From contig NW_024704762.1 in the NCBI RefSeq assembly GCF_018977255.1, forward strand, positions 9,176,001 to 9,240,000: a stretch of DNA of 64,000 nucleotides. Reading direction: 5' to 3'. The notes under the pieces are model-generated. The model saw nothing but the letters and a program-made list of their open reading frames with translations. It was not told the DNA's origin and made no database searches. Source of the stretch: Callorhinchus milii. Lineage: Eukaryota. The translations under genes were made by a program, and so were the position numbers. This document shows, one piece after another, positions 3,677 through 64,000 of this stretch (position 1 is the first letter of the stretch; each line of letters starts with the position of its first letter).

Positions 3677-4346
3677 TCAGCATTTTCCCTTTGGTGGTGC
3701 AGGAACCTGACATCCCATTAAATCGTAGTTTGTGAATACAGTGAAGATGGAGACCAGACTCATGAACTCTATGAATGACACCTCACCATCTTGATTATTA
3801 TCCAATTGTGTCATATATTGCTCCATTTTCTGCTGTGTGTTTTTTTCCTGTACACAAAAGACAGAGGTTAGAAAGCAGCACCAGTGCCAAATGATTATTA
3901 TCATTATTATTTTTTTGAAGGGGTTGTTACCCCTGGAAAGTGATCCACCAATCGACTAACAACCAGGTTCCTATTTGCTACTTGGTAAATAGAGACGTAT
4001 GGAGTAAGAAAACTTGGCTAACGTTTTGCCCTGCCTGGCAATCGAACCCAGGTCTTCTCGCTTGCGAGGCAAGTGTTCTAACCACTACACTACATCAAGA
4101 ACAACAACAAATTACATTTGTAAAGCGCCTTTCACGTTGGGAGGATGTTCCCAGGTGCTGGACGGTCAGGGGTATGGATCATCAGTTAATTTTTAATGCA
4201 AAACATACCTTACACTCTCCCAAAAATTCCTTGGTGATTAATTCCTTAGCTTCCGCTTTGTTCAGAGTGTAGATGCATCCTTCCTTCTTAGCATAATGCT
4301 GAAACAGATCTATGATCTTGTCCATCAGTTTGTCCAGCTGAGACAT
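3677..4346 (-). CDS. S100 family protein, gene 1 (102 aa); coding exons 4346-4209 and 3847-3677
   Basis: Exon 2 MSQLDKLMDKIIDLFQHYAKKEGCIYTLNKAEAKELITKEFLGECK (pseudo EF-hand) ends AAG/GTATG. Exon 3 starts after CAG: EKNTQQKMEQYMTQLDNNQDGEVSFIEFMSLVSIFTVFTNYDLMGCQVPAPPKGKC* with canonical EF-hand DNNQDGEVSFIE. Phase-0 intron at the typical S100 position; AATAAA at 3570-3575 (-). Confidence 0.93.
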
Positions 4347-7289: not shown

Positions 7290-8537
7290 ACTGTCCTCCT
7301 TGTCCTCTCTGCCGCCTTCGACACTGTCAACCATTCCATCCTCATACACCGCCTCTCCGCTTTACTCAATCTTCATGGATCTGCCCTTGCCTGGTTCGAT
7401 TCCTATCTCTCTCACTATCTCCACTTCATTGCCTCTAACGGTTTCTCCTCCAGCCCCCGCACTGTCATGTCTGGCGTCCCCCAGGGCTCTGTCCTTGTCT
7501 CCTCTTTGATATCTACATGCTCCATCTTGGTGACATCATCCGTAGACATGGGGTCAACTTCCAAGTGTATGTGGATGACACCCAATTCTATCTTTCTGCC
7601 TCCACCGTCAACTCCAGGACCACTGCTGTCCTGACAGACTGCCTGTCAGGCATCAAGTCCGGGATGAGGGCAAACTTCCTACAGTTGAATGTGAACAAGA
7701 CTGAGGCCCTCCTGATTGGCTCACGCCAGCGCCTCTGCACCTCAGGCTCTGGCAACATCAACCTCCATGGTTGCACACTACAACTCACCAAGCCAGTCAG
7801 GAACCTTGGGGTCTTGTTCGACCCTCAACTGTCTTTTTTCCCCCACATCCAAGCCATGACCCGCTCTGCCTTCCCTCACCTCCATAACATTGCCCGACTC
7901 CGCCATTACCTCACTCTCAGGCACTGAAACTCTTGTTCATGCCTTCAACACCTCCAGGCTCGACTATGCAAATGCCCTGGGTGTCGGCCTTCCCAACTCC
8001 TCCCTCCACAGGCTGCAGATAATCCAGAACTCTGCCGCCCATGTCCTCTCCTGCACCAAACTGCGTGATCCCATCTCCCCAACTCTCGCCCAACTTCACT
8101 GGCTCCCTATGCTTCAGAGGATCCAGTTCAAGATCCTGGTCCTCACCTACAAAGCCCTCCATGGTCTCGCCCCATCTCTGCGACCTCCTAACCCCCTACC
8201 AACCTGCCTGTTCCCTCCCCTCAGCCGGCTCTGGCTGATCCACGTCCCCTGCCCCACCTGCCCCACCATTGGGGGGAGAGCCTTCAGCCACTCTGCCCCC
8301 AACCTCTGGAATTCTATCCCCCAATCACTCCGCCTCGCCCCCTCCTTAATCTCCTTCAAGTACCACCTCAAGACCCTCCTCTTCGACCATGCCATTGGCC
8401 ACCGCCCTTCCCCTTCTCTCCCGACCCCCCCCAACCCCAGCTCGGGTCTGAAATGCTGCACTCTGTCCAGCACCTTGGGACGTCCTCCCGATGTGAAAGG
8501 CGCTATACAAATGTAATCTTGTTGTTGTTGTTGTTGT
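7290..8537 (+). mobile_element. L2/CR1-clade LINE, 5'-truncated
   Basis: RT motifs [33 protein letters not shown] and LHWLP with frameshifts; 3' end GTGAAAGGCGCTATACAAATG followed by (TTG)n. Confidence 0.92.
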
Positions 8538-34600: not shown

Positions 34601-34819
34601 GGAACGCACTGCCCGTGAAAGGGTGGTGGAAGCACTTTGAGAGACGTCTCAAAGCGCTTCACAGAATATACTCAAGTGAATTGACTGTATACTTTGCAGG
34701 GCTTTGTAGGAGAAAAGCAGCAGCCAATTGCGCACAGGGGTGTCCCACAAACAGCCGTGGATTGATTGAGTGACTGAATTATCATTTTTTTTCTTTCACT
34801 TTTTCCTTTGCTCATTGTT

Positions 34820-35200
34820 GGAGGAGGTTTCAGGCAAAACCATTCAGCCTTAGTTAACCTGGGGAAACCAGATGTGAATCATCTGACCAGTTACACCAGC
34901 ACCGGGATCACCCCCCCACCATTTACTGCGTCATCTTCCTCATCAGGCTCCCTGCGAATGGCGTGGCCTTATTTTTCCTGGTCGCCAGGATCAAGAAGAT
35001 GCCTTCGACCATCTTCCTCATCAACCTGGCCACAACGGACCTGCCCTTCAAGTTCTCTTACCACTTCCTGGGCGACAAGTGGACGTTCACCAGCACATTC
35101 TCACACAGGACAACGACCTATACCTCTGGTCCTCAGCACCTTCAACAGCTGCATTGACCCTTTCGTCCATCACTACATCCCCCAAAAGCTTCAGGGAGGA
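34820..35200 (+). pseudogene. Proteinase-activated receptor pseudogene (internally deleted)
   Basis: HLTS...IYCVIFLIRLPANGVALFFLVARIKKMPSTIFLINLATTDLPFKFSYHFLGDKWTF joined almost directly to [18 protein letters not shown]; frameshifts, a deletion in TM2 and loss of TM3-TM6. Confidence 0.88.
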
Positions 35201-35954
35201 CGTGATAGACAAGAGGAACCCAAAGATACAGTGAAAACATCACAACAAGTCAATCAGACCAACAATGTGTTAGGGTCTGGGACTAAAATTCAATGATGTC
35301 TTAGATTTGAACTTTTACGTATGTTCACTCTCTCACTTCCCTCTTGCCCTCCACCCCTCTTGATCCGGTTGCCTTGAGAAGATAGTGTTACCATCATGGT
35401 GTCGGGATTTTGACCTGTTAGACTTGTCAGCCCATTTGGATGAAATGGGCAACAAAAACAGTTAACTGACAATTTAATGCCGGATCCAAGCTTCACGTCC
35501 AATCATTGCAAGCGAAGATGGGGTGGGGGGGTGGGGGAACGGGAGGTAGGAGGGAATCCATAACCCACATGCGATTCAATCTGTTGTCTAGTCATTGATG
35601 AAATGGAACCGTCAACACTTTGATGGTGAGATACAGGTAGTGAGGTGGCCTCGCCAAGCTCCGCTCTATTGAGACTTTTGACTTGCAGAAACCCAACAGA
35701 ATAAAAACGAAGGGGATAAAATAACTCAAGTCTTATCTGTTGAGGTTCTCGTGATGTCATTTCCTTCTTCCCCACAGTGTCAGGAGATTGGACTTTGGTT
35801 TCCTGCTGTTCCTGATGCTTTTTGTTATCAATGTCTAATATGAGGAGGATGTGAGTTCCGACTCTCTCTCCTCCTTCTCTCTCTCCCTCTCTTTGCACTT
35901 CCCAAGGGAGCAAAGACACAGTGGGCTGACTGAGCTCTTTGAAGCCAACCAATA

Positions 35955-38404
35955 ATGGTTGGGTCTCGGATGCCCCTGGCTCTCCTTCTGTCAGTCCTGT
36001 TAATGTCCTACACAAGATTCTGCTGTTCACAGAGAGGTAAGAAATTTGTCTCTTTATTAGAATGAGTCTTGCATCTTTTGCCCGGGCCAATAGTTTTCTA
36101 TGTAATAATAACCCTGGCATTTGGTACAGCGCCTTATCAAGTTGATGAGACGTCTCAAAGCGCTTCACAGGATATATTGTGAAGTGGAGTGACTGGGTAT
36201 TTTGTGGGCAAAACATGGCAGCCAATTGCGACATAGATTGAATGGCCAAATTTCTTTTTTTTTAATTACCCCCGGAAAAGCAAGTAAGAGAGGGAGAAGG
36301 CATTTTGGAAGAATTGGTTCCACAGAGCAGGGATAGAGAGGCTGAGAGTTCAGTGACTGATGGTGGGACGAGGGGAAAAGTGGGGGGGGGGGGTAAGACT
36401 TGCAGCAAGACTGCATTTGGGGATCAGAGGGTATGTGTGGGGGAGAGCAAGGCTAGAAATTATTTTTTTCTATCATGCAGCTTCCCCAATTTCACCCCCA
36501 AAAATACACAGTCACTCCACTTTGAGTGTATCCTGCGAAGCGCTTTGAGATGTCTCGACGACTTGATACGGTGAGAGCTACATATCAAATGCAAGGATTA
36601 TTATTGTTGTTAATACAACATAAACCTCGGAAACCGCTATGGACAAGAGACACCCAACTCATCACACTCCCTTACTTTACTTGAGAGTCCCAGGTGTTCC
36701 TTTGGTTTCCTCAGTTCAGAGCCACAGTAAATTGGCTATATATTAAGTTTGCGCTGATGGGATCTGTAGATAAGATGAGAGCTAAGAGGTCATAGTTTCA
36801 GTACACCCCACCCCCCTGTCTTGGGGTCGTGCTCCACCACTATCAAGCGCTCTACTCTGCCTGAGGGGCGCTGAGTAAATGCAAATTGTTGTTGCTGTTG
36901 TTGTTGTGAACGAGAATGACGTGAAGGGTCTGAAGTCCAGGAGGGAATAAAATACAGAGATAAAACCATCTAAAAGCCATAATTAAACTAATAACAACAA
37001 TAATAATAAAAATAATTCTTGCATTTTATGTTCTGTATTTTTTTTCCCGCCCCGGCCTTATCACGTCTTCGAGACGTCTCAAAGCGCTTCACAGGGCACA
37101 CTGTGGAGTGGAGTGACTGTGTGTTTTGTGGGTGAAACTCTATTCTCTCCTCTCTGTCTATTGCAGACAACAACAGCAATTGCTTGGGAAGAGTCTTAAC
37201 CTTCACAAATTGTCAAGCCGACATAGGTAACCCCCTCCCGAACGGAGTCCTGGACAAATCGGCCAAATATCACCTGACCAGCCCCATCACCACGGTAGTC
37301 ATCCCCACCCTTTACACCTTGGTCTTTCTCTTCGGTTTGCCGTCCAACGGGCTGGGTCTTTTGACGCTGGTCCTAAAGATGGAGAAGACGCCGTCCACCA
37401 TCTTCCTGATGAACCTGGCGATGGCAGATCTGCTCGTGATCCTCATGCTCCCCTTCAAGATCCACTACCACTTCCTGGGGAACCACTGGGTGTTCGGGGA
37501 AGCTCTGTGCCGGACACTGACTGGCCTGTTCTACGGGAACCTGTACTGTTCCGTGTTGCTCCTCACCGCCATCAGCATCGACAGGTACCTAGCTTTAGTC
37601 CATCCCTTCTTCTCCAGGCGCTTCAGAGACAAGAGCTTTGCCATTTGTACCTGTGCCGTCATCTGGGTGTTGGTTGGTGTCTCCCTGATGCCATTGCTGC
37701 TCCAGAGACAGGTCTATACCTTCGAGGATCTGAACATCAACACCTGCCACGATATGTTGCCCGAGATCGAGTCCGATTACGTCCTCTATTACTTTGTCTG
37801 CCTGGTTGTGCTTGAGTTTGCAATCCCGTGCCTCATCATTATATTCTGCTACACGTCGATAATAAGGACCTTGATTGTGAACAAGAAGAAATACGCACGA
37901 GCTGCTAAGATCACCTTTCTGCTCCTCATAGCTTTCCTTCTTTGTTTCGCTCCCAGTAACATCACCCTTCTCATCCATTACTCTGTCCATCCTCGCACGC
38001 ACAACCACAACATCTACTTGTATTACTTGATCTGCCTAGCACTCTCCAGCTTCAATAACTGTCTTGACCCTTTCCTGTACTATTACATCTCGGATGAGTT
38101 CAGGGAGAAGGTTCGAAGCCTCTTTAGGGATGCAGAAGGCGAACACTCTCAGAAAACATCCCACAAGCTCATGTCAGCCAACACCTGCTCCAGATCGCCG
38201 CAAATGGCTTCTCTTCCACCCCCCGCACTGTCTCATGTGGTGTCCCTCAGGGCTCTGTCCTCGGTCCCCTCCTCTTCACCCTCTATATGCTCCCCCTTGG
38301 TGACATCATCCGCAGACATGGAGTTAACTTCCACATGTATGCGGATGACACCCAACTCTACCTTTCCTCCTCTACTCTCAACTCCACGACCACCGATGTC
38401 CTGA
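35955..38404 (+). CDS. Proteinase-activated receptor (PAR3/PAR4-like), PAR-A, 439 aa; exons 35955-36036 and 37167-38404
   Basis: Signal-peptide exon [33 protein letters not shown] (phase 1) joins in frame at TTGCAG/AC. 7TM has [32 protein letters not shown] and DPFLYYY. The C-terminal ~65-70 aa are read from an inserted LINE. Confidence 0.9.
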
Positions 38405-40873: not shown

Positions 40874-41188
40874 GCACTTCTGTGGAACATACACAACATT
40901 CAAGAGTAACGTGTGTTGGTGGGCTATTTTACTTGAACAAGTTATGTCAGGAAATTGCTCCTCACCCTTACATCGAGAACATGTGCTAACTTGAGTTAGC
41001 TCAGTTTAAAGGCATTCTCGCTAATCTGTTCCTATTTACCCAATCCAATCATATCCTATGGAAATGCCCAAGTAGGAAATAACATTCCCAGCTTAGGAAA
41101 CTGGAACTAGTTGGTTTGGAGGGAGCGAGAGAGAGACAGAGAGACAGAGAGAAAGAGTATGTTGGAGGTGGGAGGCAAATGTGCCATT

Positions 41189-44100
41189 ATGAACAACCCT
41201 CATCTGTTACAAACTCTTCTCTTCTCTCTCTTAATATCCTCGGCTTACGGTGGTAAGTTTATAATTTTACTTCATTCAAAGTTCCTGGGGTGACAAAAGT
41301 AATAAAGAGTGGCTACGGTCTGGAAGGCACTGCCTGAGAGGTTGGTGGAAGCAGATTCGATAGTAGCTTTCGCGAGGGAACTCAACAGGGACTCGAAAAG
41401 GAAACATCTGCAGGGCTATGGGGTAAGGGGGCAGAGGAGTTGGATAGCTCTTTGAAAGAGCCGGCAACTCCATGGTGATAATAGTAATAATAATAAGAAT
41501 AATCCTTGTATTTGATGTAGAGCCTTATCAGGTTGCCGAGATGTCTCAAAGTGCTTCACAGAATATATTGTAAACAACCATAACTTGCATGTGGAGTCCT
41601 GTAGCTCAGTGGTTAGAGCACTCGCTTTGCAAGCAAGAGACCTGAGTTCAATTCCAGGCAGGTCAGGGCGAAACCTTGGGCAAGTTTCCTTACTCCACAC
41701 AGAGCCTAATAATAATCCCTCCAAAAAACAAAAACAATAATTAAATTGGTCATTTTCAATCTATGACTGTTTGTGGGACATTGCTGTGCGCAATTGGCTG
41801 CCGCGTTCGCCCACAAATATACAGTCAACTCACTTTACAGTATATTCTGTGAAGCGCTTTGGGACGTCCTCCCGACGTGAAAAGCGCTATATCAAATGCA
41901 AGGATTATTATTATTATTATTTATATAGCGTCCCGGAGCTCTTGACAGTGGAGGAGTCGGACACCGAGGCAGAGGGGAGGTGGGGGGGGGGGGTGGAGAA
42001 GTGACCGTAAGCCCGATCAAAAAGGAAGGTCTTTGAATAGGATTTGAAAGTGGGCAGGGAGGGTGCGAGGGGGGGCGATTGAGGGAGAGGGCTCCAGAGT
42101 TTTGAGAGGATCTTGAATTCGATCCGTTCAGTGACGAGTTATCAGGAGTGGTGAGTATAAATACATAAATAAATTCAGTGGGGATATTGACAGTGTGATG
42201 ACTTAAATGGTAGTGACAAGTAAACCAGGGTCAAGTTATCAGGAGTTTACTGTTATTATTAAAGATGATATTATTAGTAATACGTGATTTAAGTGCTGTA
42301 AGATGTTTCATTTTAAACTTCATAAAAATATAGAGTTATTCTTAAATCTTACGAATCCCAATTTGATATTCATCCCAAAATATTTGTTGGAAACTCAGGA
42401 CAAGTTTGATGTGATCAGTTCGATCAAGTTCAAGGATTGTTATTGTTATGATGATGATAACTGTGATTTATGGATGCTTTATGATACGAAAGTGGATTGT
42501 ACTCCAGTCTGGGTGAGCTGTGAAGGTGTTTCAGCGCCTTGGGACGTCCTCCCGACGTGAAAGGCGCTATACAAATTTAATCTTGTTGTTTCTCCCTGAG
42601 CGCTGGTGAACAAAACTCATGAAAAAAAATTGGTCACTCGTTCCACGGTTGTTTGCAATACACTACTGGGCACAAACTGTCTGCCATGTTTCACCCACAA
42701 AAACACACAGTCACTCCACTTTACACTGTATTCTGTGAAGCGCTTTGAAACGTCTCGACGACGTGATAAGGCGCTGTATGAAAGCAACAACAACAACAAA
42801 GTTACACTTGTATAGCACCTTTCACGTCGGGAGGTCATCCCAAGGTGCCGGACAGACAGGGTTACGGACCCGAGCTGGGGGTTCGGATGGGGGAGGGTGG
42901 AGGGTAGGTGGGGGGAAAGCAGGGAGATCGAAAGCACGGTTGAAGAGGGGAGGGTCTTGAGGTGGGTCTTGAAGGTGGCGAGGAAGGGGGGGGGGGGAGG
43001 CAGTGGGACTGCAGGATGGAGTTCCAGAGGGTGGGGGCAGAGTGGCAGAAGGCCCACCTGCGAATAGCGCGGCGAACGAGGACATGAAGCAGGCAGAGTA
43101 AGAATTATTATTATTATTATTAGTTATTATTATTATTTTAGTAACTTGCTGGTGGAAGAGCTTTTCCAATGTTAATTCATCTAATGCTATTCCTCCTGAG
43201 CAGATGGCGATGGGAACACGACAACTGATATAGTCGAGACAATCAAATACTTTATTATTCACGAATCTAGCTTGATAACTTTCAAGAATCTCAGCGTCAA
43301 TGAGCTTGAGAATATGACTGACTATGTCTGGAAAAACCTCACCATCTACAAGGTTGACAACATCACGAGAGGCCACTTGACTGGTGCGGTCACTACGGTG
43401 TTCATTCCAACTCTCTACATTCTGGTGTTCGGCATTGGGCTGCCCGCCAACGCACTGGGGCTCTGGATAATGATCACGAAAATCAGGAAGCTGCCCTCCA
43501 CCATCTTCCTCATCAACCTGGCCACCTCAGACCTGCTCCTCATCCTCATGCTGCCCTTCAAGATCTCCTACCACCTGATGGGCAACGACTGGATATTCGG
43601 CGAGGCTTTGTGCCGACTCTACACCGGGCTCTTCTACGGCAACATATACTGCTCCATCCTCCTCCTCACCTTCATCAGCGTCGACCGCTACTTCGCCCTG
43701 GTCCACCCGTTCCTCTCGCTGGGCTTCAGGGACAAGAGGCTTGCCTGTGGTGTTTGCCTGGGCACCTGGGCCCTGGTGTCTCTCTCTCTGCTGCCTTTCC
43801 TCCTGGTGCAGCAAACCTACCATATCCACAACCTAAACGTCACCACCTGTCACGACTCGTTGCTCTCGGAGCAACGTAGCGGCTATTTCTTCTATTACTT
43901 CGCTTCCCTGGTCATCGTGGAGTTTGCCCTGCCCTGTGCCATCACCCTGTTCTGCTACGGCTCCATCATCAAGACCCTGGCGTTCAACGAGAAGAAATAC
44001 AAGCGGGCGGCGGGCGCGACCACCCTCACCCTCCTGGTCTACGTGCTGTGCTTCACTCCCAGCAACGTCATCCTCCTGACTCACCACCTGCAGTTCTTCC

Positions 44101-44381
44101 TCAACCACCACAGCGACCTGTACATCTACTACATGCTCAGCCTGGCTCTCAGTGGCTTCAGCAGCTGCCTGGATCCCTTCATCTACTATTTTGTGTCCGA
44201 CGACTTCAGAGCCAAGGTCCAAGCGACACTTTGCTCCCGCAAGGAGAAGGGCGGCCGGGAAACCTCGCCAAAAGTCTTGCGAGTGAAGCCCCCCATCAAC
44301 ACGGTCCCCTTGACATCCTCCTTCACCTCCACCGCCACAGCCGCAGCCGCGCCCCAGCTTTTGAACAGCCTGGAGACCTGA
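41189..44381 (+). CDS. Proteinase-activated receptor (PAR3/PAR4-like), PAR-B, 413 aa; exons 41189-41252 and 43204-44381
   Basis: Signal exon MNNPHLLQTLLFSLLISSAYG G/GTAAG; acceptor GAGCAG/AT in frame with the 369-aa ORF; GLPAN, DRY, TTCHD and DPFIYYF motifs. Confidence 0.93.
41591..41921 (+). mobile_element. tRNA-derived SINE, young subfamily
   Basis: GTGGAGTCCTGTAGCTCAGTGGTTAGAGC head (A box), TTGCA anticodon-like loop, GAGTTCAATTCC B box and (ATT)n tail. Confidence 0.9.
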
Positions 44382-46514
44382 CCACACAGGGAGACTGACT
44401 GACTGAAGCAGAAAGAAATACGGAACCCTTACATTTTAACAGCCTCCTCCCTCACCACACACACTGACACACACACATACACTGACACACACTGACACAC
44501 ACACATACACTGACACACACACTGACACACACCCCGCACCCTCCACCACACCCGCCCCTCCCCCCCCGCATCAGCTACAAAATACACAGTCACTCCACTT
44601 TCAGCATCTCCTAGAGGGGGACACTGCGTGTTTGTGGGCGATATTAATTATTACGGTGGTTTTTCATTGATTCTCAGGTAAACTCACACACTCAGATTAC
44701 TCGCAAATGATACTGTCAATTCACTTTACACTCTATTCTGTGAAGCGCTTTGAGACATCGAGAAGACATGAAAAGCGCTGTATCAAATGCATGGATTGTT
44801 ATTATATTATTATTACTTTTTCCAGCTTAATAAAAAGGAGTAAATGTACGTTTTTGTGTTGAGCTGTTTCTTTGTGTTTATTGACCATTAAAGCATCAAA
44901 ATTCCAGGAAACTTGAGGAATGTGATTAAGTCCAGAGTGTGTCTATCTCTCGTTCCTCTCTATTCACAGGACAGGATTCCCCTTGTTTTCATCTTACCTA
45001 GAAATAGATGAAGCACGGCTGTTAGTCAATTGGCGGATCACTTTCCAGGGGTAATAATCCACTCCCCCAGCACCCTGACCCCGAAAAAAATTTGGTCATT
45101 CAATCCACGACTGTTTGTGGGCCACAGCTGTGTGCAATTGGCAGTCAAGTTTCGCCCACAAAATGTCCAGTCACTCCCCTATATCCTGTGGAGTGCTTTG
45201 AGATGTCTCAACGACGTGATAATGCTCTATATCAAATGCAAGGATTATTATTGTTATTATTCATTGCTCCTCCAATATATATTATGAAAGCAAACGTCAC
45301 CTCATCAATACCTGAAGCTCTCGATACCCCATCACCTCATGTCCTCTGTGTAAAACGTAGGGTTACGGTTGGAAATATTTCTCCCCTTCTTCAGGGAAAT
45401 GTATTTTAATCAAGCTTCAGATGAGTTGGCGTTTTTCTGTTAAAATGTGCGTAAAGTGATAAGAGTCAGCCTGGCTCAGTCGCTAGCCCTCACGCCTCTC
45501 AGTCAAGTGGCTGTGGGTTCAAGCCCCCAAGTCGGGATCTTTGTAGACAACACTGATGCTGCAATACAGTGCTGGGGGCGGGGGTTGGTGGGGCTGCATT
45601 GCCGGAGATGCCGTCCTTCAGATGAGACGTTAAACTAACGTCCTTCTGTTGAGGGGGAAGTTAGAGATGACATGTCACTGTTTGAAAAGAGATGGAACTT
45701 CTTCTCTTCCATCTGTGGTGTCTCTCTCTCTCTCTCTCTCAATCTGTCTGCGAAAGCACCTCACCAGTATCAAGCAGGACATCTGAGCTCAGGAAGCTGC
45801 CGTGAACACTTCACCGCGGGTTAACACTAAGCTCAAACTCCAATGACTTGATTCCAGAGCCTCTGAGCAATGGCAATGTGGGAATATACCTGTTGTGGAG
45901 TGCCGTAGCGTAGTGGTTAGAGCGCTCACCTCGCAAGCAAGAGAACCCGGGTTCGATCCCCAGGTAGGGAAGTTTAGGCAAGTTTCCTTATTCCACACGC
46001 CTCTGTTTACCTAGCAGTAAGTTAGTCAAATGGCGGATCGCTTTTCTGGGGGTAATAATCCCTCCAAGAAAATTAATCTTTAAAACAATAATTTGGTCAC
46101 TCAATCCACGACTGTTTGTGGGACGCCGCCGTGCGCAATTGGCTGCCGTGTTTTGCCCACAAAGAATACAGTCAATTCACTTTAAAGTATATTATCTCGA
46201 AAATATGATAAGACACTGTATCAAATGCAAGGATTATCATTATCATTATTATTATAGTCTGTGCGATAAGTCTTTCCCGAGGTGAGCTAAGAAATTGCTG
46301 CTCGCTCTTACTCTTCAAACGTTCTGAACCAACGACAACATCTACTAATGTGATTCTGAGCCATGAGGTCAGTTTAAAAGCATCCTTCTCGTCTGCTCCC
46401 ATTTCCTCTCCCACTTATGCACAAGTAGGAAATAACATTTCCAGCTCAGGAAACAGTTAGTTCGGAGAGAGAGAGAGTGTGTGTGTGGGACAGCTGGGAG
46501 GACCGTGTATCATC

Positions 46515-47483
46515 ATGAACTCTCCACATCTGATACAAACTCTTCTCTTCGCTCTCTTAATCTCCTGTTGCACTTCTGACTTCTTGAGTTACAACTGTAA
46601 GTTTATCATTTTACTGTATTCAAAATTCCTGGGATCACAAAGATAACATAAGGGTTGTTACGGTCTGGAACGCACTGCCTGAAAGGGTGGTGGAAGCAAA
46701 TTGGATAGAAGTTTTCAAAGCGGAATTGGGATAGTACTTGAAAAGGAAATCTTGGCTGTGGGGTACAAGCCGGGGGAGTAGGACTCGTTGGTGGCTCTTT
46801 CTAAGACCTGCACCTGCACGATGGGCCGAATGTCCTCCTTCTGTGCTGTGAGATTCTATGATTCTATGAAACTTTTGTTACGAGGTTAAGTTTTCCCGAA
46901 GCTTTCTGTTCGGCTCTGCTTTCGAGACTGCGATGTCTGAAACGGGTGAAAATGTTCACACAGGTTACCAACAGATTATCAAAGGGCAGAGAGGATTCAT
47001 TTATTAAAGGGGTGGTGTGTGGGGAAGGGGAAAAGGGGTAATTTACGGGCGTATACCCACAAAATCCACTTTAAGTACATTCTGCAAAGCGCTTTGAGAT
47101 GTCTCGACGATGTGAAAGGAACCATATCAAATGCAATCAAAGGATTATTATTATTATAATGTGCCCTAATTAAAATTATTATTATAATAATTCATTTGAA
47201 CCGGAGCCTTTTGCGCGTGTAGTTTTTTTTATTTTGAGTGTATAACGGTTCATCTCAGGGCGCAGAAAACAAGATATTAAAAGAGACACTGAAACTCGTG
47301 ACTGGGGCTCTCGAATTCGAAATAAATTCTTTCCGAGAGATTCTGCTTCAAATCGAAGCTGAAAATTTACAGAAACAAAACCAGCCATCACCGTTTCGCT
47401 GTCTGTCAAAAGTTTCCTTCCTCTAAATTAAGTGGTTTTGATAAAAGTGTAAATAAACAAGCGATTAGAAAGAGACTTCAAAG

Positions 47484-47514
<31 letters not shown>

Positions 47515-49612
47515 CCTTGCATTTGATATAGCGCTTTTCACGTCGGGAGGACGTCCCAAAGCGCTTCACAGAACACACTGTAAAGTGAATTGACTGTATA
47601 TTTGTGGGCGAACGCGGCAGCCAATTGCGCACAGCAATGTCCCACAAACAGTCGTAGATTGAAAATGACCAATTTTTTTTTTATTATTATTTTTGGTTTT
47701 TGAAGGGATTATTATTAGGCGTGTGGAGTAAGGAAACTTGCCCAAGAAACACAGTGGCTGGAACCGGTGTCGAGTGCACAGAATCTTCCTGCCTCCATCC
47801 GGCCACTGTCTTTGGAAGGTTTAAGCATTTGTGTGTCTTGAAAGTTGATTTTTTTGTTCTCCTTAAAGCAAAAGACTGGAGTCTAACTTGCGATATTTCT
47901 TTCTTAACGGTAATCAACAACCACAGTAACAACAAAGCGACGTGTGGAAAGCGCCTTTCACGTCAGGAGCACGTCCCGCGGTGCCGGACAGACAGAGTTA
48001 CGGACCCGAGCTGAGGGTCAGGGTGGGGGAGGGCGGGACAGCGGGGGTGGGGGGTGGGGGGAAGCAGGGAGATCGAAAGCAAGGTCGAAGAGGAGGGTCT
48101 TGAGGTGGGGCTTGAGGTGGGGTGACGAGAGAGGGGGCGAGATGGAGGGATTGCGGGATGGAGCTTCAGAGGGTGGGGGCAGAGTGGAGCAAGGCCTCGC
48201 GTAACGCTGATCGTGGGGCGAACGAGGCGGTGGATGTGAAGCAGGCCAGAGCCCACTGAGCGGAGGGAGCGAACAGGGTGGCCGGGGAGTTAGGAGGTGG
48301 GAGAGGTCGGGGGGAGCAAGACCATGGATGGGCTTTGAAGGTGAGGACCTGGATCTTGAACTGTATCCTCTGTGTGATGGGAGGCCAGCGGAGTCGGGCG
48401 AGGATGGGGGTGATAGGGTCGCGGAGCCCGGTGCTGTGGAGGGAGAAGTTGGGGGAGGCCAACAAGCAGTGAGTTTGCGCAGTCGAGCCTTGATGTAATG
48501 AAGGCGCGTACGAGGGTATGAAGTTTCCTCACTCCGCACACCTCTGTTCACCGAGCAGCAAGTAGGAAACCGGTTAGTCGATTGGCAGATCGCATTTCCT
48601 GAGCTTAATCATCCTTCAACAATAAATGAATAAAATAATATTTTTTTAAAAATTGGTGACTCACTCAATCCAGGACTGTTTGTGGGAACCTGCTGCGCGC
48701 AATTGGCTGCTGCTTTTCGTCCACAAAATACAGTCACTTGACAGTATATCCTGTGAAGCGCTTTGAGACGTCTCAAAGACCGGTTAAGACTCTATATCAA
48801 ACGCAAGGATTATTATTATTAATTAATAATAAGTGGATTATTATTATTAATAATAATAAGTCTCTCCCTGTCCCTCTGAGTCCCCTCAAAGGTGGCCAAC
48901 TTTTGGTGTGATGCAACGTGAATTCATCTATTTTTTTTCTTCCACTTGTGTTTGCAGTCACAGATTACAATTACGAGAGAAGTATAATGCTCAATGAGTC
49001 GACCTACAATTACGAGGGAAGTATAATGCTCAATGAGTCGACTGACTTTGCAATGTCGAAAGCAAATCCCAGAGGCTTCCGTCCTCATTATGAATTGATA
49101 CCAGTGATTGTCACCATAAATAACAGAACCTTCTACACAATGAAGAACCTCAGCAACGTTGACAACATCACGAGAGGCCACTTGACTGGTGCGGTCACTA
49201 CGGTGTTCATTCCAACTCTCTACATTCTGGTGTTCGGCATTGGGCTGCCCGCCAACGCACTGGGGCTCTGGATAATGATCACGAAAATCAGGAAGCTGCC
49301 CTCCACCATCTTCCTCATCAACCTGGCCACCTCAGACCTGCTCCTCATCCTCATGCTGCCCTTCAAGATCTCCTACCACCTGATGGGCAACGACTGGATA
49401 TTCGGCGAGGCTTTGTGCCGACTCTACACCGGGCTCTTCTACGGCAACATGTACTGCTCCATCCTCCTCCTCACCTTCATCAGCGTCGACCGCTACTTCG
49501 CCCTGGTCCACCCGTTCCTCTCGCTGCGCTTCAGGTGAGCAAATACTCAGAGTAGAGTCAGTAGATGTGGAGGTTCACTCTTCGTGACAATGCTACTGTT
49601 TGAAGGCAGACA

Positions 49613-49647
<35 letters not shown>

Positions 49648-50469
49648 TCTTTCCATCGTGAAGTCCCGTAGCTCAGTGGTTAGAGCTCTCGCCTTGCAAG
49701 CGAGAGGACCCAGGTTCGATTCCCGGGTGGGGCAAAGCCTTAGGCAAGTTTCCTTACTCCACACACACACACTTTTTTTGATGCAACAAAGACGTGATAA
49801 GGCGCGCCGTCAAATGCAAGGATTCTTATTGTTGTTACTATTATTATATTCAGGGACAAGAGGCTTGCCTGTGGTGTTTGCCTGGGCACCTGGGCCCTGG
49901 TGTCTCTCTCTCTGCTGCCTTTCCTCCTGGTGCAGCAAACCTACCATATCCACAACCTAAACGTCACCACCTGTCACGATGTGTTGCCCTTGAGACAACA
50001 GAACGGCTATTTCTTCTATTACTTCGCTTCCCTGGTCACCGTGGAGTTTGCCCTGCCCTGCGCCATCACCCTGTTCTGCTACGGCTCCGTCATCAAGACC
50101 CTGGCGTTCAACGAGAAGAAATACAAGCGGGCGGCGGGCGCGACCACCCTCACCCTCCTGGTCTACGTGCTGTGCTTCACTCCCAGCAACGTCATCCTCC
50201 TGACTCACCACCTGCAGTTCTTCCTCAACCACGACAGCGACCTGTACATCTACTACATGCTCAGCCTGGCTCTCAGTGGCTTCAGCAGCTGCCTGGATCC
50301 CTTCATCTACTATTTTGTGTCCGACGACTTCAGAGCCAAGGTCCAAGCGACACTTTGCTCCCGCAAGGAGAAGGGCGGCCGGGAAACCTCACAAGAACTT
50401 TTACGTACCACCACCACCTCCACAACGACCAACTTCCTCTACACGTCCCACTCGAAGACCGTAGTCTGA
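46515..50469 (+). CDS. Proteinase-activated receptor (PAR4-like cleavage site), PAR-C, 424 aa if spliced; exons 46515-46596, 48958-49534, 49854-50469
   Basis: Signal exon MNSPHLIQTLLFALLISCCTSDFLSYN T/GTAAG; acceptor TTTGCAG/TC; ANPR/GFRPHY site. The 7TM region is nearly identical to PAR-B but is interrupted by a 319-nt GT..AG insertion whose removal restores the frame. It could instead be a disrupted pseudogene. Confidence 0.8.
47940..48525 (-). mobile_element. L2/CR1-clade LINE 3' fragment in PAR-C intron 1
   Basis: AFITSRLDCANSLL and RIQFKI motifs plus the family 3' end. Confidence 0.85.
49658..49848 (+). mobile_element. Internally deleted tRNA-derived SINE inside the PAR-C insertion
   Basis: GTAGCTCAGTGGTTAGAGC...GGTTCGATTCCC head joined to the GACGTGATAAGGCG..CAAATGCAAGG(ATT)n tail; central core missing. 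Confidence 0.85.
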
Positions 50470-50562
50470 GTGAATAGCCTCTGACTCGCTGGAGACCTGA
50501 CCCCACAGGGAGACTGACTGACTGTCCAGCTTGCCTTGTCAAAAGCAGAATGAATTGTCATC

Positions 50563-50940: not shown

Positions 50941-52109
50941 TTGTTAGGTTACTGACTGAGCTCCACTCTGTGTGTGTTACCTGTTACACAGTAGAGAACA
51001 AGTGGAATTGACCTTAGTGGCGATAGAGATGGTGAACTTTCAAGGCAGTGTGTGTGTGTGTGTGTGAACCCTGTCAGCTCAAGTAATGTCAGGGACTTAG
51101 GCCAAACTGGGGGTCAACTTTCAAACCATTTGGACTCAATTGTCCTTTGATACAAAACTGGATGTTGCACACAGAGAAAGATAGTTACCTTCACTACGTC
51201 CCGACACAAAACTAGTAAAGAATCCCACTAAGCTTGGGAGATGGTGTAAGCATGAAGTGCTGATCCTCTTAAGAACAAATTAGATAGATTTCCGTGAGGA
51301 ATTAATATCTCGGGATACAATACTATATTTGGGGCACGACATGAGGTAAGCAACGGCCAGGATGGTGGAAGGCAAACTGGATGGACCTTGGTTTTCTTTC
51401 ATCCGGCAAATTCTCAGCTTCTTATATTCTTATAAACTGCATTCAACTTCCTACTGACAGACACCTGGTAATCATATTTATGCCACACATTCAGCCCCAC
51501 AAGCTTGCCGCTGTGAAACCTTCCCAGGTATTTCCATTTGCTGTTAATTCTCATTGCCGGCTCATTTGAACAATAAAGAAAAAGTTTGTAACTTGTGAGT
51601 TGAATGGTTGTTTGACTTCAGTAATTCAAAGAGCTGACACAGACACGACGGGCCCGAATGGCCTTTTTCTGTGCTCTAAATGCGCGCGCACGAAATACGC
51701 AGTGAATTCACTTTACGGTATTACTCTAGAGGGGACCGAGTGTCCCATGAACACCACCTGACACTACCACCCCACCACACAGCCACACTTTCTGATGAAC
51801 AACACTACAGGGCAGCTTTGGTACAAAGCACCTCAGGGCACTTCACACATAATTGCTGACAAGTGTCGTGACTGTATGTGTAAACAACTATTGTAAAATA
51901 ATAACTCTCTTGGACAAGAGGCCGCAAACAACCACGAGGGGAACGAACAATTGTGGGCCAGGACACTGGGAGAGACTCCCTTCGCTCTTCAAACGACACC
52001 ACGGAATCTTTATCTCGCGCATGTACCTGTACAAGCACAGACTCACCCTCAGGATGGCACCTCAGATAATGCCATAGCCCGCGCCCCCCTCAGTTCTGCC
52101 TTGATATGG

Positions 52110-52260
52110 CCGCCCAGCCGCATCTCCACCAGCTTCCTCTACGGCAACATGTACTGCTCTGTCCTCCTCCTCGCCTTCGTCCGTTATTTCTGGTCTTTCG
52201 CCAGCGTGGGCTGGGTGCCTTGCCATGTCTGCTCGCTCTGGTGCGTGATGTGGCTGTGAT
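52110..52260 (+). pseudogene. PAR pseudogene fragment (TM3-TM4 remnant)
   Basis: RISTSFLYGNMYCSVLLLAFVRYF matches TM3 of the neighbouring PARs (FYGNMYCSILLLTFISVDRYF) with a deletion in the DRY region; flanked by SINE and LINE pieces. Confidence 0.75.
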
Positions 52261-57559: not shown

Positions 57560-60422
57560 ATGCTGCCATCACCCTCGCCTGGATCAGTGGTCCTCCTGCT
57601 CGTTCTCAGTTGCTTAGCCACAGCCTTCTCCACACATAACTCTGACGGTAAGACACTGACCTTCTTTCCAGTCACTCTTAAGAGACTCATAAGGGGAGAA
57701 ATTACGCCCGGGTCTGGATTCATTCCGTTTTCGTAGCATTTAAAAGAGAGTTCAGAATTTGGCAAATTGTTAAAACACTTCCCTTTACTGAATATCTCGT
57801 AGGTTTGGTGTTAGCCTGGCTCACTTTGGTAGCACTCCTACCTCTGAGTAAGAAGTAACCCGAGGAACCTCTGAAGGTTGTGGGTTCAAGCCCCACATTG
57901 GGACTTTGAGCTCTTATGTCTCGGCTGACGTTTTCCAATGCAGTGCTGCGGGTAATGCTGCACTGTTGAAGCTGCCTGTTCAAGTAGATGTTAAAGGTAC
58001 TAGAAAAGAGGAGGTTTCTCCCAGTGACTTAGCCAACAATCCCTGGATAAAATATGTCATTCACTTTATGCGTGTTGATGGAACGTTGCCGGGTGCAAAC
58101 TGGCCGCACAATTTGTCCTTAAAACACACGGTCACTATACTTTGAAACCCCAGTTCAACGGGGAGGGTTTCAGGTGGGATTTTAAACAGCCAGGGAACAG
58201 GGCGAAGGTGGAAGGATTTGGGGAGAGTTCCTGAGATCAAGCACAAAGCAACCAGGAGATTGGCCACCATTTGTGAAGCAGAAGCAGACGGAAATCGTGA
58301 GATTAGACGTGGTCGGAGGAAAATGTAGAGATAAGAGTCTTGCACATTCAACACAGGATCTGAGGTCCCGCTCATGCAGCCACTTTTAGTGCAACCTTCA
58401 GATAAGATGTTAAATGTTAGATCTGGCGTCCTGTAGAGTAGTGGTTAGAGCCTTCGCCTCGCAAGCGAGAGGACCCTGGTTTGATTCCCGGGCAGGACCC
58501 AAACTTAGGCAAGTTTCCTTACTCCACATGCCTCGGTTTACCTAGCTGTAAGTAGGTGGCCGTTGGTCGATCGGCGGATCGCTTTTCTGGGGGCTAATAA
58601 TTCTTTCAAAATAAATAAATAAATTGGTCACTCAATCCATGACTGTTTGTGGGACACTGCTGTGAGCAATTTACTGCCACATCTTGTGATAAGGCGCTAT
58701 ATGAAATGTAAGGATATTATTATCCCTTCTGTATGTTTACTCCTACCTCCGTTCCCACAAAATGCTCCAGTGTCATTGCTAATTCCTTTAAACTCACTTC
58801 CTCTTTGCAAGTACTATGGTGCAAATGAGATGCCTGCAATAATTTCGAAAATGTCTGAGGAACTGGAAGAGGACCTTCAGCCCCTCGAACCTGTTTATCC
58901 ATTCTATAAGATCATGGCTGATCTGTACCTCAACTCCAATTACCCGCCTTTGCCCCATATCCCTTGATACCCTGACCTAACAGATATCTATCCACCTCAG
59001 TCTTGAAAATTTGCATCCAGCCAGAATCCACAGCCTTTTGGGGGAGTTTCTTTTTTAAAAGAACTTTTGTGAGGTCTGGAGAATTGCTCATCCAAAGGCA
59101 GAACTACACCCAGATAAATTGCTCCCCACCCGCCCTGCCCCCTCCTTTCCCATCTTCAGGTCGCACCTGAAGACCTTCCTATTCGACCGTGCCTACGGCT
59201 ATCTGCCCCCTCCCCCAGGCTCGGCATCATGCTCGGCCACTGCCAAGAGCTCTGGGAAGCTATATAAATGCAAGTTGCTGTTGTTGTTATTTCGGCAGTG
59301 ATATCAAACAAATGCAGGGATTCTGAATCATAAAAGGTACTTATTCCTTCCCTCTCTTTCCGTACAGTGATAGAAAAAGCACAATTCCCCAAGTCCAGAA
59401 AATTTCCCATCTATTCGGTTACACAAGATGGTTCAAACCAGACCATCCACAAAGTCAATGAATCGGTCACCAACTACCTGACCGGCAAAGAGATGACACT
59501 GGTGATACCCTACCTGTATTTGGCGATCTTCACCATTGGCCTTCCCGCCAATGCCTTGGCTTTCTGGGTTCTCTTCAGCAAAATCAAGAGGCTTCCCTCC
59601 ACCATCTTCTTCCTCAACTTGGCCTTGGCTGACCTGCTCCTAATGCTTGCCTTACCTCTCAAGATCTCCTACCACCTGTTGGGCAACGACTGGCTATTCG
59701 GGGAGGCCATGTGTCGGGTGTCCAGTGTGATCTTCTACGCCAACGTGTACTCCTCCATCCTGCTACTCACCTGCGTGGCTGTGGACCGTTACCTGGCAGT
59801 GGTCCATCCCTTCTTCTCAAAGGAGCTCAGAACAAGGTCATTCGCCTGGTTCCTCTGTGGCGTTAGCTGGGCTCTGGTATTATTCGCCATGCTGCCCTAT
59901 TACGTCACCCAGCAATCCTACCCAATCGCCGAACTCAACATCACCACTTGCAACGAATTCTTACCCTCCATTGTCCTCGCCAACTATTTCGACAATTACA
60001 CTGTGGGCCTGGTTGTGTTTGGGTTTGTCCTTCCCTGCCTCATCATTGTATTCTGTTACGTGTGTGTGATCAGAATTCTAGTACTCAACCGGGAGAATTA
60101 CACACAGGTCATTAAGGTGACTTTGTTGGTCTTACTGGTATTTCTGATGTGCTTGACTCCCGGGCAGGTCTTCCTATTAATCCAAATTTATACAAATAAC
60201 ATTGACTTTTATAAATATTTCTTGATTTTCCAAATTCTCAGCACTTTCAATAGCTGCATTGACCCATTCATCTATTACTATGCCTCCAGTGAATTCAGGG
60301 CCAAACTGAAGGGGGCAATCTCTACTAACCAGAAAGGGAGCGTACAGGTGTCTAGTAAAACAAAACTGTCAATGCTACAGACTAACAGTTCATCCCAGGC
60401 CAGTGGTCCTGTGCCAGTTTAG
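57560..60422 (+). CDS. Proteinase-activated receptor-like, PAR-D, 380 aa; exons 57560-57647 and 59368-60422
   Basis: Signal exon [35 protein letters not shown]; acceptor polypyrimidine-TACAG/TG in frame; [29 protein letters not shown] and [11 protein letters not shown] motifs. Confidence 0.92.

Positions 60423-62545: not shown

Positions 62546-64000
<1,455 letters not shown>

Follow-up and report, generated by a model that had tools for sequence, protein, structure and literature searches.

In the 64,000-nucleotide stretch of the Callorhinchus milii genome analysed here (the window: contig NW_024704762.1 of assembly GCF_018977255.1, forward-strand positions 9,176,001 to 9,240,000), two tandem genes coding for protease-activated receptors (PARs), PAR-B and PAR-C, lie about 6 kb apart and share a membrane core that is about 98% identical, with most of the remaining differences gathered in eight codons of the second extracellular loop (ECL2). 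Our reading of this pattern, to which we assign a probability of about 0.62, is that the seven-transmembrane (7TM) exon has been kept alike by repeated interlocus gene conversion, and that the ECL2 patch has been held apart by selection. Of the components of this reading, gene conversion of the core is highly probable, selection acting on the ECL2 island stands a little better than even, and a strict matching of each ECL2 to the ligand of its own receptor is unlikely.

The PAR-B and PAR-C core, its flanks and its intron

The features of both genes are listed below; the arrow marks a cleavage or splice point here and throughout, and G1 denotes a shark orthologue group. X1, X5, X14 and X18 are the four runs, of 24 listed, whose contigs were compared with PAR-C (48900-50560). 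X1 and X5 represent organism A, which agrees near letter-for-letter with the window, X14 represents organism B and X18 organism C; contigs drop variants, and the non-observation of a letter in them is not decisive.

41189..41252 (+) PAR-B exon 1, coding part (signal peptide), from translation with exon 2
43204..44381 (+) PAR-B exon 2 (N-terminus, 7TM, C-tail), without internal intron
43242..43265 (+) PAR-B putative cleavage site and tethered ligand IK↓YFIIHE, predicted, in register with shark G1 sites such as IMR↓TF
43353..44266 (+) PAR-B homogenised core, 914 nt, from pairwise alignment
43856..43879 (+) PAR-B ECL2 divergence island SLLSEQRS, from alignment; B-type letters in X1 contig 7 and X5 contig 25
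44267..44381 (+) PAR-B own C-tail, which differs from the G1 tail ending in SQELLRT
46515..46596 (+) PAR-C exon 1, coding part (signal peptide)
48958..49534 (+) PAR-C exon 2 (N-terminus to second intracellular loop, ICL2), from translation and X1 contig 1 cover
49068..49091 (+) PAR-C putative cleavage site and tethered ligand PR↓GFRPHY, predicted
49158..50390 (+) PAR-C homogenised core, 914 nt coding plus intron
49535..49853 (+) PAR-C phase-2 GT-AG intron in an ICL2 Arg codon (CAG↓G site)
49854..50469 (+) PAR-C exon 3 (fourth transmembrane segment, TM4, to C-tail), with G1-type SQELLRT tail
49980..50003 (+) PAR-C ECL2 divergence island VLPLRQQN, nearer to shark orthologues

Once a single 319-nt gap is set aside in PAR-C, both cores are 914 nt long and align without further gap and with 17 substitutions, 11 of which fall within the 24-nt ECL2 patch. 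None of 200,000 random placements brought 11 or more of the 17 changes into 24 nt, the maximum being 7, and identity is unbroken for 133 bases to the left of the patch and for 35 to the right. The six substitutions outside the patch (43646, 43722, 43915, 43937, 43965 and 44109) comprise five non-synonymous changes (I/M, G/R, I/T, I/V, H/D) and a silent one. A previous sequence-only reading of this DNA had described two near-identical regions of 914 nt, about six substitutions outside ECL2 with five of them changing the amino acid, and the loop peptides CHD-SLLSEQRS-GY and CHD-VLPLRQQN-GY, and the alignment reproduces each of these exactly. The same reading had noted largely unalignable N-termini and C-tails and more diverged exon 1 regions, as we also find: alignment of the N-termini and of the C-tails takes numerous gaps (91 and 66 columns), and identity drops to 91/109 aligned columns in the promoter and 5'UTR, 52/66 in exon 1 (the bounds of which are 1-2 nt off in this comparison) and 169/208 at the start of intron 1, with blastn of 41064-41472 against 46417-46818 yielding 68% when gaps are counted. 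A near-identical tract embedded in older, diverged homologous flanks is a mark of concerted evolution.

Outside the patch, the proportions of synonymous and non-synonymous differences (pS and pN) amount to 1/216 (0.0046) and 5/669, and inside it to 0.44 and 0.40, both uncorrected. A patch homogenised like the core would be expected to hold 0.13 changes in 27 nt, against 11 seen (P 3e-18, and still 2e-10 at the upper bound of pS), so that this comparison argues that the patch did not arise neutrally after full homogenisation and has long resisted conversion. At nine of the 11 residues that differ between the two receptors PAR-C has the one commoner among 13 G1 orthologues, and PAR-B would thus be mostly the derived copy. 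Within the window, PAR-A and PAR-D, the paralogues on either side, carry unrelated ECL2 patches.

The 319-nt insert of PAR-C is a phase-2 GT-AG intron that interrupts an AGG Arg codon, starts with GTGAG, ends with TTCAG and is flanked by TTCAGG repeats. Its removal restores the frame exactly, the unspliced reading stops right after SLRFR, and two NCBI models (P0122 and P0123) splice it. PAR-A, PAR-B and PAR-D being continuous at this site, the intron was likely gained in PAR-C, and it may owe its origin to an insertion with duplication of an AG↓G target site. It contains a (CT)n run (around 49615-49644) and the decayed head (49658-49765) and tail (around 49789-49847) of a tRNA-derived short interspersed element (SINE). 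No other copy in the window matches the SINE head by more than 85% over about 100 nt, young copies being 96-98% alike, and organism B has the unique 5' part of the intron (at 49548 the depth is 15.7 and two bases are inserted), which is also covered in X1; on these grounds the intron is, to judge from the sequences compared, much older than the identity of the core. The spliced PAR-C junction was not seen among the contigs of X1, X5, X14 and X18, the sole joining contig being B-type, and, since none of the listed runs that contain the stretch is recorded as RNA and X5 is RNA by guess, its lack of cover in the unique part of the intron does not count as splicing evidence.

Recurrence of the ECL2 island and the case for selection

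The clade-wide pattern was addressed on proteins, not on the DNA of shark loci, with 55 shark and ray sequences drawn from the best 120 of 198 matches plus cluster members (duplicate isoforms and two unnamed proteins excluded) and sorted by eye into five groups according to N-terminus and C-tail. The longest identical run has a median of 34 aa (maximum 125) in 59 same-species paralogue pairs and of 21 in 300 orthologue pairs. Over residues 141-228 (TM2-ICL2) paralogues differ by 0.114 and orthologues by 0.157, shuffled labels giving 0.171 (0/2000 as low), and the paralogue-group label changes 23 times on the TM2-ICL2 tree, the bootstrap of which is not fully settled, versus seven on the TM5-C-terminal tree, obtained by a quick search. 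Trees of cartilaginous-fish PARs built from TM2-TM3 are hence misleading. That paralogues are closer than orthologues, a second mark of concerted evolution, is seen directly in these shark and ray proteins, and for PAR-B and PAR-C through the collapsed contigs of organism B, not through assembled orthologues. Database entries treat some of the proteins as isoforms of a single locus, but chimeric gene models are an unlikely cause of the mosaics, because the members of a pair differ at either end and such pairs turn up again in other assemblies. No fragment from a close relative was found in protein searches (0/602 among shorter proteins, and five distant matches among 485 for PAR-C exon 3).

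A homogenisation signal is present in four of the five segments considered (0-2/2000 shuffles), although small in TM1 and in TM5-H8. The ECL2 patch is the sole segment lacking it (524/2000 shuffles), in a test that has less power for eight residues than for long segments and in which sites within a tract are not independent. The 125-aa tracts of Chiloscyllium and Hemiscyllium end inside the patch. Six broadly homogenised pairs were then compared, with P values weighted by site variability. The patch holds 6/11 residue differences in PAR-B/PAR-C (P 2e-5), 4/14 in a Carcharodon pair (P 0.009) and 3/19 in a Heptranchias pair (P 0.11), the last with none in the 20 residues on either side. Escape of the ECL2 patch from conversion, which the inference of the sequence-only reading implies, is supported both by the segment test and by these islands.

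A role for the island in ligand recognition would be compatible with its position. In the available text of PMC12033368, H255, D256 and L258 of PAR1 and H227, D228 and L230 of PAR2 contact the ligand, the third residue of which fills the V236 pocket. The C-H-D-x-L motif of ECL2 aligns to PAR2 H227, D228 and L230, and six residues neighbouring these contacts differ between PAR-B and PAR-C, one of them, the last residue of the patch, at the position of PAR2 V236. For PAR4, the accessible part of 10.1101/804427 presents the involvement of ECL2 as indirect. The PAR-B and PAR-C patches adjoin contact positions defined in PAR1 and PAR2. Exchanges of ECL2 between frog and human PAR1 are said to have placed agonist selectivity in residues from about 259 on.

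Several results weigh against selection on the island, and above all against its matching to a ligand. No island is apparent in the pairs from Amia (2/22 differences in the patch), S. torazame (1/6) and S. canicula (0/8). In both Scyliorhinus species the paired receptors, of groups G2a and G2b, have different putative ligands (GR↓GLAL and GR↓SFPL) with zero to one patch differences; since these catshark pairs differ in putative ligand and barely or not at all in the patch, a distinct ligand appears possible without a distinct ECL2, which is then not required for it. Chiloscyllium G2a and Hemiscyllium G2b have an identical patch. The equivalents of the H, D and L contacts are identical in PAR-B and PAR-C. 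Among orthologues of three groups the patch belongs to the 5-16% most variable 8-aa windows, and it may for this reason have diverged too far for conversion. Its divergence exceeds that of the flanks weakly (P 0.003-0.16 depending on the flank value, for a window chosen post hoc), and the presumably near-neutral intron has survived conversion as well. The 5:1 ratio of non-synonymous to silent changes outside the patch shows no excess (Fisher P = 1), and such an excess was dropped as a candidate sign of selection. Finally, the B-type contigs of X1 and X5 have nine other letters each downstream of the intron, which the patch and 50028 explain in full, and read C-type at 50039, 50061 and 50089 (X1 also at 50233), so that polymorphism or errors in the reference may underlie as many as four of the six differences outside the patch. 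The C-type form of ECL2 did not appear among the contigs of X1 or X5, from which variants get dropped.

The alternative that best withstands the evidence accepts conversion of the core and regards the island as neutral: a loosely constrained patch would have diverged early and would now block tracts as the intron does. The hypervariability of the patch between orthologues (p-distance 0.46-0.50, against 0.25-0.29 for the core), its homogenisation in both catshark pairs and the persistence of the 319-nt intron, as told by its decayed SINE head and by its 5' part in organism B, all speak for it, as does the fact, reported in the text seen of PMC3924837, that large indels and accumulated substitutions halt conversion. 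What makes it rather improbable is that 24 nt would have had to gather 11 changes within a converted zone, with 133 and 35 identical bases beside them, and that the island recurs in Carcharodon and Heptranchias, with PAR-B/PAR-C and Carcharodon exceeding the variability-weighted expectation.

Under the reading that combines conversion with selection, an old tandem duplication, its age suggested by the roughly 17-30% difference between the non-coding flanks, would have been followed by repeated short tracts of DNA conversion wherever the copies remained similar enough to pair. The tracts would end where the N-terminus and C-tail become unalignable and would bypass the PAR-C-only intron, so that termini, flanks and intron escape through heterology. 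Conversion would be recurrent, because the multi-copy core of organism B, a related species, has the same left edge with 12% different letters. Selection would act against tracts that swap the eight-codon patch following CHD; alternatively, the resistance would stem from a loose loop that diverged early. PAR-B and PAR-C could then constitute one signalling core with two inputs, differing in protease site and putative ligand, in which the island is retained for its position at the entrance of the pocket.

Of the twofold inference drawn by the sequence-only reading, gene conversion of the core is supported by the contrast between flanks and core, the collapsed contigs and the clade-wide mosaic, and the proposal that selection keeps ligand and ECL2 matched loses ground to the catshark pairs, the identical H, D and L, the variability of the patch and the surviving intron. 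It is doubtful that the PAR4 array of cartilaginous fishes represents a system in which conversion resets the core, protease site, tethered ligand and an eight-residue ECL2 cassette form a matched module, and the PAR-C intron was made by a SINE that duplicated its own AG↓G target; if it did, PAR-B and PAR-C would be a natural minimal pair, with six ECL2 residues deciding which ligand activates the receptor.

Contigs of other organisms and the remaining alternatives

In organism A, X1 contig 2 runs from the first base of the core to the base before the G/R difference (49158-49526) with one other letter in 369 and a depth of 28.7, compared with 8.1-11.5 on PAR-C-only sequence, which is the expectation for two near-identical copies of the core; X1 contig 1 covers 48900-49187 with one other letter. 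X5 contig 25 joins 275 letters unlike PAR-C to a core without the intron and then to a B-type ECL2, and its three other letters in 49154-49531 match the number of differences between PAR-B and PAR-C there (positions inferred). In organism B, an X14 contig also starts at 49158, with a depth of 48-54 against about 16 on apparently single-copy parts and with 20 other letters in 168 (12% from C. milii). Organism B thus seems to possess several homogenised core copies of its own, sharing this left edge. The main X14 contig is C-type, not B-type, at 49980, 49981, 49988, 50000, 50001 and 50003. A silent position, 43904/50028, is T in both reference copies and C in X1, X5, X14 and X18, the last two from other species; as a derived variant shared by the two paralogues it would fit recent conversion, although it may also reflect read mixing, bubble removal or a reference error. 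For X18, summed depth on 49180-49515 (TM1-TM3) is about 140-590, against 30-60 for single contigs further on, and organism C may have many near-identical copies, summed contig depth being no measure of copy number.

A single recent event, whether one conversion or an unequal crossover, with no long-term concerted evolution, would account for just one silent difference in 216 sites, and for PAR-C having the commoner residue at 9/11 positions, as if PAR-B were a recent modified copy. It is nevertheless very improbable: the X1 core collapsed at about double depth and the 12%-diverged multi-copy core of organism B argue against one recent duplication as they do against an artefact of assembly, one tract cannot cross both the PAR-C-only intron and the island, and shark lineages have their own shared tracts.

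An RNA route, with a reverse-transcribed spliced PAR-C transcript recombined into PAR-B, would account for the seamless sequence of PAR-B at the place of the PAR-C intron, but has a slimmer chance still. Identity reaches the splice site, on whose two sides 75 and 133 bases agree, with one difference 8 nt upstream, and copies of SINEs and long interspersed elements (LINEs) are dense in the window, but PAR-A, PAR-B and PAR-D are all continuous at the site, so that PAR-B requires no intron loss; a cDNA tract should also have carried the ECL2 patch along, and a distance of 6 kb favours conversion between DNA copies.

Mixed PAR-B and PAR-C reads as the source of the near-identity are hardly credible. 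The T at 43904/50028 is of the kind such mixing would leave, and no listed contig covers the whole stretch, but X1 contig 2 has the same core, one other letter in 369, at about 2-3 times the depth, X5 contig 25 links a non-C 5' end to the core and a B-type ECL2, and the same mosaics occur in separate shark assemblies. The check by read depth suggested in the sequence-only reading reveals the collapsed core in X1. Equally remote is the view of PAR-C as a pseudogene broken by the SINE and serving as sequence donor only, to which the stop after SLRFR and the lack of a C-type spliced junction in any contig of the four runs lend some colour, but against which stand GT-AG ends that restore a 424-aa frame, the ancestral residues of PAR-C, its splicing in NCBI models and X5 cover that starts in the bin containing the acceptor of exon 2 and also takes in the C tail.

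Family placement, related systems and the surrounding locus

The two-exon model of PAR-B translates into 413 aa, identical to the C. milii protein P0001 from residue 11 of P0001 on, with PAR-B being a 100% match to that protein, and the three-exon model of PAR-C into 424 aa, the same sequence as in the PAR-C half of P0122. A class A 7TM domain is recognised (PF00001, E 3.8e-48), the nearest solved structures are those of PAR2, PAR4 and PAR1, and a single-sequence AlphaFold model was uninformative (pLDDT 40). Both receptors show the hallmarks of PARs, namely an exon for the signal peptide, an extended N-terminus in which an R/K site precedes a putative tethered ligand with an aromatic residue, and the ECL2 motif mentioned above, identical in PAR-B and PAR-C. 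The putative PAR-C site, with Pro at P2 and Arg at P1, is thrombin-like; that of PAR-B, placed by alignment alone, is weaker than that of PAR-C.

A FastTree analysis of 82 proteins places PAR-B and PAR-C inside the PAR4/F2RL3 clade (support 96), the 41 rows of which include hyena PAR4 (P0196) and teleost F2RL3 and leave gecko PAR3, donkey PAR1 and bird PAR2 outside; the databases, in conflict with this placement, label both PAR3-like. In the TM5-C-terminal tree they are sisters within G1 (support 98). NCBI models fuse PAR-B with PAR-C (P0122, 865 aa) and PAR-C with PAR-D (P0123, 812 aa), fusions that are probably annotation errors. Database names, which range over PAR2-, PAR3- and PAR4-like for one clade, and the fused gene models at this locus are thus unreliable.

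Like PAR4/F2RL3, with which they share the clade, PAR-B and PAR-C have a signal-peptide exon, a 7TM exon and the CHD motif in ECL2, with a PR↓G site in PAR-C; unlike it, they sit next to an S100 cluster in an array that comprises four intact copies and two fragments, and PAR-C has a third exon. Adjacent class A G-protein-coupled receptors (GPCRs) under conversion are known from the chemokine receptor pairs CCR2/CCR5 and CCR1/CCR3, which, in the portions seen of PMC2880985 and PMC8877049, were converted independently in several mammal lineages and evolve faster in their extracellular parts. The PARs differ in that the ligand is part of the receptor, the 7TM region is 99% identical outside the patch and intron heterology lies inside the converted region, whereas tracts in bat CCR genes include extracellular domains, as far as those portions go. 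A narrow divergence peak within tandem copies that are otherwise homogenised, interpreted as a site under selection, has been described for exon 5 of the red and green opsins and corresponds to the Teshima-Innan model (PMC3924837, seen in part). In the opsins the causal residues are known and the introns are the most homogenised parts; in the PARs introns and flanks have escaped, and a functional role of the peak is putative. Late intron gains in fish GPCRs (MC2R, MC5R, P2Y, CHRM3) resemble the PAR-C intron in being phase-2 and in their position at a MAG↓R proto-splice site close to where TM3 ends, but, in the available sections of PMC3151243, belong to acanthopterygian teleosts and are absent from elephant shark orthologues; the PAR-C intron occurs in a single paralogue of C. 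milii, some 12 codons beyond DRY, and has flanking TTCAGG repeats and the remains of a SINE.

No paper on PAR conversion or on this array was found in the literature, in a search that did not cover most subscription papers and supplements. A survey of PAR evolution (PMC4771116) reports two to three PAR4 copies in some fish, frog and birds and, in its accessible portion, includes neither shark nor the word conversion, and the part seen of PMC8455134 has a single passing mention of PARs. The mechanism is therefore known from opsins and chemokine receptors and apparently unreported for PARs. The pairs compared here offer a test set for how PARs discriminate tethered ligands, in which PAR-B/PAR-C and the Carcharodon and Heptranchias pairs combine the same core with a different ligand and ECL2, and the catshark pairs provide the contrast of the same core and ECL2 with a different ligand.

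Some side observations concern related receptors. The bowfin (Amia) PAR4 pair P0060/P0063 has a near-identical core and different ends, and the pattern of conversion may extend to bony fishes. Ray group G2c (P0018, P0031, P0148) has acidic, ESESEDV-like N-termini where its sister groups have a G-R site, and may consist of non-cleavable PAR4 paralogues. Two different PAR4-like receptors of Stegostoma (P0012, P0023) are modelled with the same signal-peptide exon, which may reflect splicing to a common exon 1 or a model artefact.

The array lies between the S100 cluster and a ubiquitin exon, neighbours read from this window, and its outer intact genes are as follows.

35955..38404 (+) PAR-A, upstream paralogue, not homogenised with PAR-B or PAR-C, 67% DNA identity to PAR-B
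59334..60422 (+) PAR-D exon 2 open reading frame, downstream paralogue, not homogenised with PAR-B or PAR-C, near-identical to P0059

Two decayed PAR fragments (34778-35296 and 51897-52259) lie among the intact genes. The last 70 or so codons of PAR-A (38194-38404) run into a LINE fragment that is 76% like 7428-8388, and its C-tail and stop appear to be of retroelement origin. At the N-terminus of PAR-C, a 39-nt tandem duplication (48966-49043), spanned without gaps by X1 contig 1, leaves an N-E-S-T glycosylation sequon in two copies. The S100 cluster (3680-27645) comprises at least five genes, with S_100 exons near 4185, 6128, 11266, 20210 and 27397 and EF-hand exons near 3680, 6646, 18604 and 24862. 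On the minus strand, 63808-63894 holds a single ubiquitin exon with phase-1 ends, phases that we take to fit UBA52, a neighbour of human F2RL3.

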